Source of the DNA: Ruditapes philippinarum
Taxonomy: Eukaryota
Length of the DNA stretch: 64,000 bases
Direction: 5' to 3'
Assembly: GCF_026571515.1 (NCBI RefSeq)
Contig: NW_026855093.1
Span: 62,001-126,000 of the forward strand
Of this stretch, positions 28,401 through 33,493 are shown piece after piece. A program made the translations under genes and the position numbers. The stretch's first letter is position 1, and each line of letters opens with the position of its first letter. The notes beneath the pieces were generated by a model. The model searched no databases. It saw only the letters and a list, made by a program, of their open reading frames with translations, and was not told the DNA's origin.

Positions 28401-31400
28401 ATCGCTTGAAGTTAGACTATGACAAAATAATTTTAATAACTATAACATGTCAACCAAGAAATAATATATCCCAAACAGTGATTTTATCGCTGAATAAAAT
28501 CACTGTTTTGAGTTCAGATGTGACAAATTATATCACGAGGGCATAGCCCGAGTGATATAACGATGCGCATCCGAACGACCAACAATGATGTTATCAAGCA
28601 ATAAAATCACCGATTTGGATTCTAACACGACATCAACAAATAAAATTACTGCTGCCGTACCTGATGTCAAGCAAAATTGCGCCTGATTGGTTTGCGTACT
28701 TTTTTTTAGCGCGTCGATCAGATTTCTTAGTGGTTACGTCACATGTATAATGATTACGTCACAAATCTACAAATCTAAGTATAGAATGTCTGTAACTTTA
28801 TTGCATAACAACGCGCACTTTTGGTTCTTCTAATTCAATATTTAGTGAAAAATGAGGGTCGTGTTTGAATAACAAATAATTTACATAGGCTACCGATCTA
28901 ATTGAAGGTAATTTTATTTCTCATAGATTTCTGTCACTTGACATAATATTAGGAATAACAATATTAAGAATATCTGAGTGTAAAATTGTTAAAGACATAT
29001 ATGTCCTCTCTTTATGCAAAAGTTAATTGATACGCTAGTTATTGACTTCATCCTTGCCTTTTTTCATAACTGAAAAAAAGTACAACGACTGTCGTTGATA
29101 GTAAGTATAAACTTGCCGCACTCTTTGGTTAGCAGCACGGACCCGAACGTACAGCCACTTCCTTAATTTAAACAAACCTATCCATTGACTAACGGAATGA
29201 AGTAGTAATACAAAATTGGCTACCTTATTCATTCGAAAACACGAACATATAGCCCTATCGCATAATGCAATGTGGGTAAACAGAACTTATACACAAATCT
29301 TTTTTATGATATTCAAATATATATGAGCCATTGAATATTCCTCTTTTTCTTCTATACACGTTGTTTTATACGTATATCATGATTTGGTTTAGCATTGCGG
29401 AGGCGTTCCTGACATAGGCATCGTTGGGCGGGGCTTAAAATATGTCCAACCTTACATACGCAGCGAATACGATACTCGTATTTTATTGGACCGCAGATCT
29501 TCGTATTGTGCTGAGTGCTGCTCTATGGATAATTGTAATATTGATCTTTGTCAACATTTGAAACGTAAGTAGAATGTCGTTTATTTTCATTTACTCCTTT
29601 CCCATAAAAACTAATATATAGTATAATTATGATGGTAATAGAGCTCGATTTAGAAACGTGACATCCACTAGTGGTGATTATTTGATATTATGATCGTATA
29701 ATTGACTACATATGAAAATAGCGAAACTAACATATTATTTAAGTTACTTTTACGGTCAAAACTTGCATGTATTTGTTTTCACATTGACTGCCAGTATGCT
29801 TTCAAGCCATTTGCCATCGTTCTCGCGGTATTTGCAAATATTAAACAAGTTAATTAGCTTACATGATTTGATGTTATATTTAAGAATATTCTTCAAATTT
29901 ACAACTGGTTGTTATTCATGATATGTGAAAAACAGCTATAAATTATTCGTCAAGATTAGAATATTTTGTATCAAATTGTTATCTTTAATGTTTTTTTGTA
30001 ACATTTGTTTTTTTTGTGTTTGTTCAATATATTGTTAAACAAAAAACCTGACTTCTTTACGTTTCCCTTTAATGACAATACTGTGGAGTCAGCTACTTCT
30101 TTCCACTTAATTTAATTGTTTGTACTGGACATTGTAAGCTATTTAGCAAGATAATTTGATAAACTGTTAAGTTAGAAAAAACCTTTAAAATATCCTTCTA
30201 AAGATTGAAACTTTATAAAACTTAAGACATTTTTAAGTATTTTCATTCATTGAGTAAAATGAGGAACACGAACTAAATATCGTTTCAGCAACACAATGTG
30301 TTGATGATGAAACTGTTGATTGTGCAAAGATGAACTCGATCTTCCACATCTGCAATGACACACATCAAGCCAAACTTGTCTGTCCGAAATTCTGCAACTT
30401 ATGCAAACTTGGTAGGTACACGATACAGATGTTTGAGTAGATATATTGAAACAAAACATGTTTCAATATTTTCTGTTCATGTATGTTATTTGTATGTGTA
30501 TTTCATTGACAAACACTAATAATGACGGGTTAAAATTGTATGTGTGTCAACACTATGAATAAATCTATGAGAACAACAGTTACTTGCAATAATGGTGAAA
30601 AATATCGTATCCTATTAACATCATTCGATTGCAATACATACACAGTTCAACTACTAATGCATACACTATTTTAATATAATACATTTAATATGTGATATGC
30701 AGGCTTCAGAACCTCAGATCCCCTTTCAAAATTCCATTTTATTTAGTTCCGCCCATTGTTTTCTCGTTTAGGGCACACGCATTTTTTTTTAACTTAGGGA
30801 CCATATGCCGCTTTTCATGGAATGGCACTCACGTGTCACATTGAAGGTTCCATGATGACGCCATATAAACACATCTGCGGATGTTTCAAATTATAAATTT
30901 TACCAGTTCATGTAAAATGTTGAATTCTGCTTAAGCCGGTGCTAGGGGGCGTGGACGGTAGTTTGCATTTGACAGTACCATTCATGAACAGGCTCGATCA
31001 AACCGAGCCTGAAACATTTTTAATTTCGCCATGTTCGGCTTTCCTTAGGGATTCTTACTTCATTCTGTTAAGCCTTACATTTGGCATCTTATGTACATGA
31101 TGTCGTGGTAAACTTGAGTTGATTTAAACAAAGATTGTATAAACACATACGCAAACACATTTCTTCAGTCATACATCATAAGTACTGTCTTTACACGGAC
31201 GACACTTTTTTGTAAAAGTAATATGCAATTATCTAATTACCTACTTACTAGATATTACAGTTATTACAATTTCATCTTATTTATAAATCAGTCATTGTAA
31301 CAATCCTATTGTAATTCACAATGATGGCGTAATGATATTCTTTAAAAGAGATAGTTCAATGTAATTGTTTTCTTAACGTCTAAAGTTTGGACAAAAATGG

Positions 31401-33493
31401 CAGTATGAAGATGATATCATTCATTTTAAATTGTGAACAAATATATCAAAAAGTTTTGTTAAATATCTTATTACATATTCAGTTGATGGCATATGGGCAG
31501 AATGGTCAAATTGGGGTACATGCTCGCTTAAAAGTGATGTGTGTACGCAATCGAGATTTCGAACATGCACCAATCCTGCTCCTGCTTTTGGAGGACTTGG
31601 TTGTGAAGGAAGGAATACTGAAACCAGAAAATGCTCAACCCACTTTTGTCCTGGTAATACTTTTTTCTTAGAATATACTTTTCAATATACTCTATTGCAT
31701 GTTTGTCTAAAATGTTTTTCTTCTCCTTTCGGTATGCATAATACATAATATATCAGTGGGCTGTTTATATTTTGTCCAGAATAATATAAAAAGTAAAATT
31801 ATTATTATTGAAAATTGTTAATTATGAGACATTTGGAACAGTATACCTTGAAATATTCGCAATGTAAGAAACATTCAAATAACCCATCTTGATGAAAACA
31901 TAATGAATCATGCAATATACATATGTGTTCAAATTAATTGTTGAGTGTCAGTTGAAAGTATATGCATGAATCAATGAGATAATTCAGTTAAATAAACTAA
32001 TTGAATTATCTTATTCTAGAAATTATAAATATTATACTTGTTTAAATCATAATATTAGTCCCTATATATGCATGTATTGTTGTTTTTACTTCTTTTTCAG
32101 GCCACATTTGAAATATATATCTATATGACTGCTCTTGTATATTCATAATGTGTTACCTTATCTAAGTAAAGATACGTTTGTCATTGTAATAATTATCTTT
32201 TAATTATTCAAATTGATATTTAATATACAGGAGTATGTGCTGGAAAAGAGTACTTGAATTCAAGTTTATCAAACGTTGCTAAAGGTAAAAGCGTCACATT
32301 GAGTTCATTATTCGACTCAATTTCTCCGAGATCACTTATGGTAGGTATTTCATAAATCTATGCACTTAGAACTTATTTGCATTTAATTGATTTATTTACT
32401 AGTAAATAATTAATAATTTAAATTAGATTATTAAAGTATTTTATAGTAAGTTGATAAAAAATCAAGGTATTGATTAACATGTTATCATTTATTAACGTAT
32501 ATTATGTTAATATGTAAATCATCCAATTTATGAATACGATAATAAATTAATTTGTTTTGTATTTTGTTTATTTATAAATGTATCCGTTAATTGATTTATC
32601 TTACTAAATTAATTTATTGTCTTTTTTAATTTAAGTTTAATTGATACAATATTTCAAGTTTTAGTTCAAATTTAAACTCATGTACTCATGCGCGTTATAG
32701 GAAAATGCCACCCAAACTTAACTTGGTGATTCACTAGTATTAATCATATTTCGTCTTAGAAAATCACACAATCATACTTTATAAGTAATACTAAATAGGG
32801 TTACACAAAAACACTTGGAATTTATTTGTTACTTTTTTATGGCAATGTTCTGTTAAAGATAATAAATATATCGACTACTGGACCATATGTTCTGTTCCTC
32901 TTACTTTACATTTCATCAGTACTGCTTTATTATACTTATCATAATTTATTACTTTAACAGGTGGATGGAAATCGTGACAGCTCCTGGCCATGTGCTTGCA
33001 CTTTAAACAGTGATCATCCGTACGCCATTGTCGATTTGCAGCATCCGTTTAACATACTTTCCATGTACATTGTAAACAGAGGAGACTGTTGTCGTAAATA
33101 ACACGAATACATTTTATCATCTGCTAAATTTGGATACAAATTAACTGTCTTTCTAGATCCAAAAGTACTTAATTTATGTTGATCTTTAATGTACCTTAAA
33201 TAAGCAATCGGAAAAGTTACAGTATTTTCAAAAGTTATCTTTGGAGACGGAATATTTGTTTTTCTTTTGGCTCTAATAAACATATATTGCTTTCAGCTGA
33301 ACGGCTCAATAATTTGGCTGTGTTCGTTGGAAACTCAACATCAAGTTTGAGCCTTGCTGCACAACACCCAGGTCCTATTGGTGCAGACTGTATCTTAGTA
33401 TTCGATTCAGCAGTGCACGGACGATATGTAAAACTACAAATACAAGGCGTGTCGTATCTAACAATTTGTGAACTCGAAATATATGCTGAATAA
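25496..33493 (+). CDS. Secreted mosaic protein, 365 aa: signal peptide - Ly6/uPAR (three-finger) - ShKT - thrombospondin type 1 - F-type (fucolectin) lectin domain
   Basis: Exons 25496-25508, 26013-26051, 26910-26992, 27417-27473, 29393-29564, 30289-30411, 31483-31653, 32231-32340, 32961-33093, 33297-33493. All GT-AG, phases consistent, 1098 nt open. Motifs: MKILGVSLRFLLLIKTVDA|FQCFSC...CCSMDNCN; CVDD...CPKFCNLC; WAEWSNWGTCS...RFRTCTNPAP; NVAKGK...VDGN...NRGDCCPER...GRYV...LTICELEIY. The two 5' micro-exons are the least certain. Confidence 0.88.
28470..28640. mobile_element. Crypton-like palindromic element end in intron 4 of the mosaic gene
   Basis: Nested inverted repeats: aaacagtgattttat...ataaaatcactgttt and ttatatcacgagggc atagccc gagtgatataa. 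Confidence 0.55.
30692..31065. mobile_element. Family X repeat, near full-length copy (reverse orientation)
   Basis: Matches 51528-51860 directly, and 3935-4215 and 63100-63375 as reverse complement. Confidence 0.8.

Follow-up and report, generated by a model that had tools for sequence, protein, structure and literature searches.

The FREPs of gastropods are known for somatic diversification. Together with the CREPs, GREPs and QREPs they make up the gastropod VIgLs, described as proteins with an immunoglobulin superfamily (IgSF) chassis, of which the QREPs are reported in gastropods only (PMC9334734, PMC10672478). Vertebrate defence collagens (C1q, ficolins and MBL/collectins) are summarised as a common stalk bearing a C1q, fibrinogen or C-type lectin head (PMC11312191), and published surveys divide bivalve C1q-domain-containing (C1qDC) proteins into globular-only, coiled-coil, collagen, multi-C1q or QREP classes (PMC6835236, PMC8905726, PMC10672478). 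Bivalve C1q, fibrinogen and lectin proteins have been catalogued head by head, and automatic names scatter the genes that we describe here. We analyzed a 64,000-nucleotide stretch ("the window") of contig NW_026855093.1 from the clam Ruditapes philippinarum, in which a ten-exon plus-strand gene at 25496–33493 (LOC132742079 by database match) encodes a signal peptide, an LU/three-finger module (three exons), an ShK-like module (one exon), a TSP1 module (one exon) and an F-type lectin head (three exons). It is one member of a large family of secreted proteins, apparently undescribed so far, that have this front end (here called the chassis) in common and carry one of five classes of head.

The closest analogue is the gastropod VIgLs, with a different chassis. 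As in published accounts of VIgLs, one N-terminal chassis on a secreted protein is followed by various C-terminal heads (fibrinogen, C-type lectin, C1q), and the chassis, here LU plus ShK, escapes automatic annotation; the shared chassis with alternative lectin-type C-terminal domains that marks VIgLs is present with five head classes. Unlike the VIgLs as described, the clam family is built as LU-ShK-(TSP1)n and has F-type lectin and SRCR among its heads; a galectin head was not seen. The window protein has no N-terminal IgSF domain; LU, ShK-like and TSP1 modules fill its whole mature region. The likeness to defence collagens, as summarised above, lies in the common stalk with a C1q, fibrinogen or C-type lectin head, but TSP1 repeats and LU-ShK sit where the collagen stalk would be, and no collagen family appeared among the Pfam matches of the 38 proteins scanned or the precomputed domains of database proteins. 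The family is VIgL-like and defence-collagen-like in design and a member of neither. It also resembles bivalve C1qDC proteins, as those surveys portray them, in having a C1q end at 62 of 121 loci, usually in one exon, and in tandem expansion (PMC6835236, PMC8905726, PMC10672478). A term search found "thrombospondin", "TSP" and "ShK" absent from the main texts of these three papers, and among the rows listed from the supplements of PMC8905726 a term search matched BLAST names only. We found no description of an LU-ShK-TSP1 plus head architecture in the open-access literature, subscription papers lying outside the search.

To define the family we followed its ShK exon, which has at least 150 matches in the R. 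philippinarum genome. Removal of weak matches and ShK-repeat copies left 137 listed, and 121 were examined (the window and 120 further stretches, each up to 10 kb; the 16 omitted were mostly apparent duplicates). These are loci rather than gene counts, because near-duplicate contigs are included. Downstream extension was applied to 22 of the 121 (one round of 4; a main set of 18 unresolved and 2 resolved). A recognizable head followed at 107 loci: C1q at 62, fibrinogen at 26, F-type lectin at 12, C-type lectin at 4 and SRCR at 3, with the C1q assignment of L033 taken from its RefSeq protein and not from locus DNA. An LU exon lay within 2 kb upstream at 100 of the 121. Between ShK and head are 0–6 TSP1 exons (mostly 3), with 0–4 EGF modules ahead of fibrinogen and 0–4 sushi modules ahead of F-type lectin, and both tandem clusters and tandem heads occur. 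L042 (G000:C3475) has tandem F-type lectin heads, four in its RefSeq protein P0042, and belongs to a cluster of six F-type members on one contig. L100, L101, L118 and L148 (G000:C5473) are double C-type lectin members, with 0–1 TSP1, arranged in a tandem cluster, and the C1q-headed sister genes L081 and L119 share that contig.

The family extends beyond Ruditapes. Heads were recognized in 88 of 123 database proteins, isoforms included (C1q 57, fibrinogen 17, F-type 13, C-type 1), and a full-library search added 8 SRCR-headed proteins; single-sequence protein searches had returned only 6 and 4 relatives. All named chassis proteins come from Ruditapes, Mercenaria, Mactra, Mya or Dreissena. A Haliotis match was rejected as a family member: it has ShK repeats but neither LU nor TSP1. 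The family is probably, though not demonstrably, confined to this clam group, as names were looked up for 20 of 105 new representatives and the search profile derives from Ruditapes exons. Automatic labels for family proteins (coadhesin-like, hemicentin-like, notch-like) reflect similarity, and grouping by chassis instead yields one large family spanning Ruditapes, Mercenaria and Mya, which are farmed, and the zebra mussel, an invasive species. In P0169, P0181 and P0107 the chassis is followed by tails or inserts without a Pfam family, which could be extra head types or bad models.

The sequence-only reading of the window had proposed that phase-1 introns lie at every domain boundary, that the ShK (123 bp) and TSP1 (171 bp) exons are symmetric phase 1-1 exons, that the three-finger and lectin modules also open at phase-1 introns, and that paralogues carry the same chassis with C-type lectin, fibrinogen or C1q ends. 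All of this held. Both exons have AG/GT ends, the LU and lectin modules open at phase 1 (26910 and 32231), and all four module borders of the window gene are phase 1. The LU module (26910–29564, 312 bp) is phase 1 at both outer ends with two inner phase-0 introns. Phase 1 also occurs off domain borders, at one intron within the signal peptide and one within the lectin domain. Across 41 RefSeq models mapped to loci (after removal of five that were duplicate isoforms or mapped to a paralogue, and with 2 junctions unresolved), module-boundary introns were phase 1 in 195 of 195, counted as the intron before each LU (4), ShK (35), TSP1 (105), EGF (15), sushi (5), C1q (14), fibrinogen (6) and F-type (11) module. 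Introns within modules were phase 0 in 32 of 32 LU cases and mixed in fibrinogen (6 phase 0, 12 phase 1) and F-type lectin (11 and 9), with seven unclassified. On inspection, the acceptors of C-type lectin and SRCR heads agreed with phase 1 at 6 of 7 loci. Calling borders blindly from the DNA, which was noisier than protein mapping, gave phase 1 at 98 of 122 ShK acceptors and 117 of 122 donors, and at 244 of 295 TSP1 acceptors and 249 of 295 donors. The family is a class 1-1 exon-shuffled mosaic and preserves, in clear form, how exons were shuffled between paralogues. Neither a single-copy gene nor an invariant architecture was found: homologues vary in both head and TSP1 count, and F-type lectin and SRCR join the predicted heads.

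Domain identities in the window protein were assessed module by module. TSP1 matches Pfam TSP_1 at 24.9 bits and the head matches PF22633 (43.3 bits) and PF00754 (31.6 bits), all above cut-off, identifying an F-type lectin/F5-8C domain. The ShK-like exon falls just short (PF01549, E 0.0016, 19.4 bits against a cut-off of 20.9) with six conserved cysteines, and had no fold match in a structural search. No Pfam LU match was found in the LU region, but its cysteine pattern, ending CC-x4-CN and conserved in 72 alignment rows, and its modeled fold are those of a three-finger domain: all 33 structural matches were three-finger folds, the best being CD59 (Z 4.8, rmsd 3.1, 58 aligned) for a partly confident model. 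That LU-ShK model is confident solely over about residues 1–48 and gave no Foldseek match at E 0.001 or better; a single-sequence fold of the whole protein reached pLDDT 32.9. Atlas rows for LU are named UPAR_LY6, and relatives match PF00021/PF00087 weakly. The LU variable loop, about 17 residues longer in the window gene (29393–29564), opens in the family alignment on a conserved G(I/L)(V/I)GR, and its end is often dibasic or RQ, possibly a protease site.

The head aligns with striped bass FBP32 (PDB 3CQO) at E 6.5e-29, the query being the near-identical copy P0007. Like FBP32 and PDB 1K12, it retains the calcium motif and both arginines; unlike them, it has Cys for the fucose-binding His and sits on an LU-ShK-TSP1 chassis. 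Against the F-type motifs as published, calcium h2DGx and fucose HX24RXDX4(R/K) (PMC5712786), the window head aligns DGN to FBP32 with Met, not V/A/I, at the first hydrophobic position, and keeps Arg, Asp and Arg of the fucose motif with Cys for His, as does Mercenaria P0003. Because the motif His is Cys, the head likely binds a ligand other than canonical fucose. The F-type lectin genes L182 and L183 (G000:C14447 and C9125), with no chassis exons in the DNA examined, share this His-to-Cys change and are a possible donor lineage; L183 has a weak PAN-domain match upstream.

To place the heads on the chassis we built an LU-ShK tree of 129 rows, which requires 13 head-class changes, compared with a minimum of 4 and a mean of 47.5 for shuffled labels (12 against 47.3 with TSP1 added). 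The C1q genes L070, L086, L120 and L129 nest in a fibrinogen-chassis clade, and a single fibrinogen-headed chassis clade was rejected (AU p 0.00024, 45 rows). This suggests that a fibrinogen-type chassis regained a C1q head at least once; because the tree is unrooted, we infer the direction of change. The window chassis groups with C1q-headed chassis, away from other F-type members. An apparent nesting of L069 and L092 among C1q genes was an artefact of non-equivalent TSP1 exons, and the tree was therefore rebuilt without TSP1. Chassis identity across head classes peaks at 72% among the 33 rows compared. With 13 changes and this ceiling, swaps appear recurrent, old and few: swapping is real but rare, and on these trees the family looks combinatorial only in an evolutionary and infrequent sense.

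Heads and chassis also diverge at different rates. Among 68 C1q members, 34 pairs shared at least 80% chassis identity, and in 33 of these the chassis was better conserved than the C1q head. Pooled dN/dS in 13 hand-picked pairs was 0.18 for LU-ShK, 0.19 for TSP1 and 0.48 for C1q.

Properdin TSP1 repeats and CD59-type LU domains dock on host partners of the complement or receptor kind, and all five head classes, SRCR included, are domain types employed in invertebrate recognition. C1q and lectin domains are described in the same use (PMC8905726, PMC5712786). The clam TSP1 repeats match properdin and the top LU structural match is CD59; these are shared folds with weak Z, and the clam LU is N-terminal and not membrane-anchored. 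From the kinds of head and this analogy, an immune role is inferred. We consider it probable that a conserved LU-ShK-(TSP1)n front, joined at phase 1 to one of five heads, makes secreted pattern-recognition or opsonin proteins. A C1q-headed ancestor would have expanded by tandem duplication, intronic recombination replacing 3' exons now and then, as the trees suggest; by analogy, the head would attach to a glycan or a surface, and the chassis, as the constant part, would serve as spacer and dock for a shared host partner, either a haemocyte receptor or a complement component. If the chassis partner is common, it would give a direct handle on clam recognition signalling and a third independent case of a stalk with swappable heads. 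A stronger proposal, which we advance tentatively and think somewhat less probable than its negation, is that venerid and myid clams arrived independently at an immune repertoire of more than 100 secreted proteins, each pairing a constant region with a variable head from one of five unrelated recognition folds. Its LU-ShK-TSP1 effector chassis would engage a common host receptor or complement component, some of its genes would splice alternative head exons, and it would be to clams what VIgLs are to gastropods and defence collagens to vertebrates.

Several points weigh against recognition and the history proposed for it. Boundary introns are inherited, so the 195 represent about 14 junction types and not 195 events, and the phases by themselves are no surprise, since extracellular modules of this kind usually sit in phase 1-1 exons. 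Of 12 pairs, a single one had a whole-domain dN/dS above 1, a result explained equally well by relaxed constraint and by diversifying selection. The approximately unbiased (AU) tests used 45-row subsets picked after tree inspection, and they do not establish two origins for F-type heads (p 0.004 with TSP1, 0.09 without, 0.114 on the head tree) or for C-type lectin heads (p 0.22). Finally, C1q, lectin and TSP1 domains are also reported to serve biomineralisation (PMC12092138). This last point favors the main rival, a matrix or adhesive role: the same family and history, with the proteins acting in shell matrix, particle-sorting mucus, byssus or gamete surfaces, TSP1 binding matrix and the heads binding self glycans. 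The coadhesin-like and hemicentin-like names, which are similarity labels only, and the sparse exon coverage in four RNA runs (raw reads, tissue unknown) point the same way, but five unrelated recognition folds on one chassis, more than 100 loci, tandem arrays and fast-diverging heads suit a recognition repertoire better, and we regard the structural role as unlikely.

The sequence-only reading had gone further, suggesting that the ShK and TSP1 exons could be skipped in frame and that the paralogues may form a combinatorial pattern-recognition system. Free combination, in which recent recombination or splicing continually pairs any chassis with any head, draws on several observations. Among close paralogues, L100 lacks the TSP1 exon of L101, and two of three TSP1 exons are missing in L069 relative to L074 and in L040 relative to L035; Dreissena RefSeq isoforms differ by one TSP1 repeat; Mercenaria P0030 and P0031 share residues 1–325 and then carry C1q exons 46% identical; and at L107 and L122 a single chassis is followed in the DNA by a pair of C1q exons, both with phase-1 acceptors. 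The isoforms in this list are, however, automatic models, and in no gene did the alternative heads seen belong to different classes. No ShK or TSP1 skipping appeared in the window gene's two RefSeq isoform sequences or in the three covering RNA assemblies, whose contigs lose rare forms; isoform X2 (P0002), taken from its Pfam list for a TSP1-skipping form, keeps both exons and differs at the N-terminus alone. Because heads cluster strongly on the chassis tree, with far fewer changes than shuffled labels and the 72% ceiling noted above, "combinatorial" overstates the case and we judge free mixing very improbable. Mostly neutral birth and death, with phase-compatible exons reshuffled in tandem arrays and many copies non-functional and without shared function, could draw on the 14 of 121 loci with no head in the DNA examined, on partial or split matches over the first TSP1 exon at L129, L048 and L064 and on near-duplicate contigs, but is largely refuted, and barely credible to us, given purifying selection on the chassis, its retention in five genera, a Mercenaria counterpart of the window gene with the same architecture and 68% identity over LU-ShK, and spliced transcripts of the window gene.

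The exons of the window gene are listed below. The nine downstream exons splice into a single open frame, and by protein mapping the spliced model is identical to RefSeq XP_060586355 (P0008, 365 aa) from residue 5 onward. Exon 1 was placed at the sole ATG in window 1–26000 that reads the first four residues of P0008. Five GT-AG junctions, from 29564 to 33297, are present in contigs of 3 of 4 runs (three studies) that were taken as RNA by guess.

Coding exons of LOC132742079 in the window
Feature	Position	Strand	Support
Coding exon 1: start codon and first 4 signal-peptide residues, ends phase 1	25496..25508	+	Weak donor
Remaining signal peptide, phase 1-1	26013..26051	+	Spliced frame, protein mapping
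LU/three-finger exon a, phase 1-0	26910..26992	+	Spliced frame, protein mapping, fold matches
LU exon b, phase 0-0	27417..27473	+	Spliced frame, protein mapping
LU exon c (long loop, CC-x4-CN end), phase 0-1	29393..29564	+	Spliced frame, protein mapping, RNA contigs
ShK-like exon, 123 bp, phase 1-1, AG/GT ends	30289..30411	+	Pfam sub-cut-off, RNA joints
TSP1 exon, 171 bp, phase 1-1, AG/GT ends	31483..31653	+	Pfam above cut-off, RNA joints
F-type lectin exon 1, phase 1-0	32231..32340	+	Pfam, RNA contigs
F-type lectin exon 2, phase 0-1; calcium motif, fucose-binding His to Cys	32961..33093	+	Alignment
F-type lectin exon 3 including stop codon	33297..33493	+	RNA contigs

A repeat at 30690–31060, in the ShK-TSP1 intron, reaches thousands-fold read depth in the RNA runs, and further repeats lie near 24570–24920 and 28450–28800; intronic repeats so dominated the raw RNA reads that no splice information could be drawn from them. 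L031 (G000:C8205, RefSeq P0007), a haplotig or recent duplicate, is a near-identical copy of the gene (97–98% in exons) on a contig that stops short of the LU exons.

Other genes were noticed alongside the family. On the minus strand at 50679–54845, two open frames resemble an IFI44-like gene, with no informative Pfam match. Also on the minus strand, 36393–41174 holds a probable gene for a signal peptide, coiled-coil and C-type lectin (Pfam Lectin_C E 0.0014, under cut-off), which may be frameshifted, as its coiled-coil frame joins the lectin frame out of register near 39625. Elsewhere in the genome, L189 and L190 are genes unrelated to the chassis that combine a mucin-like threonine/glycine repeat with EGF and F-type lectin domains.

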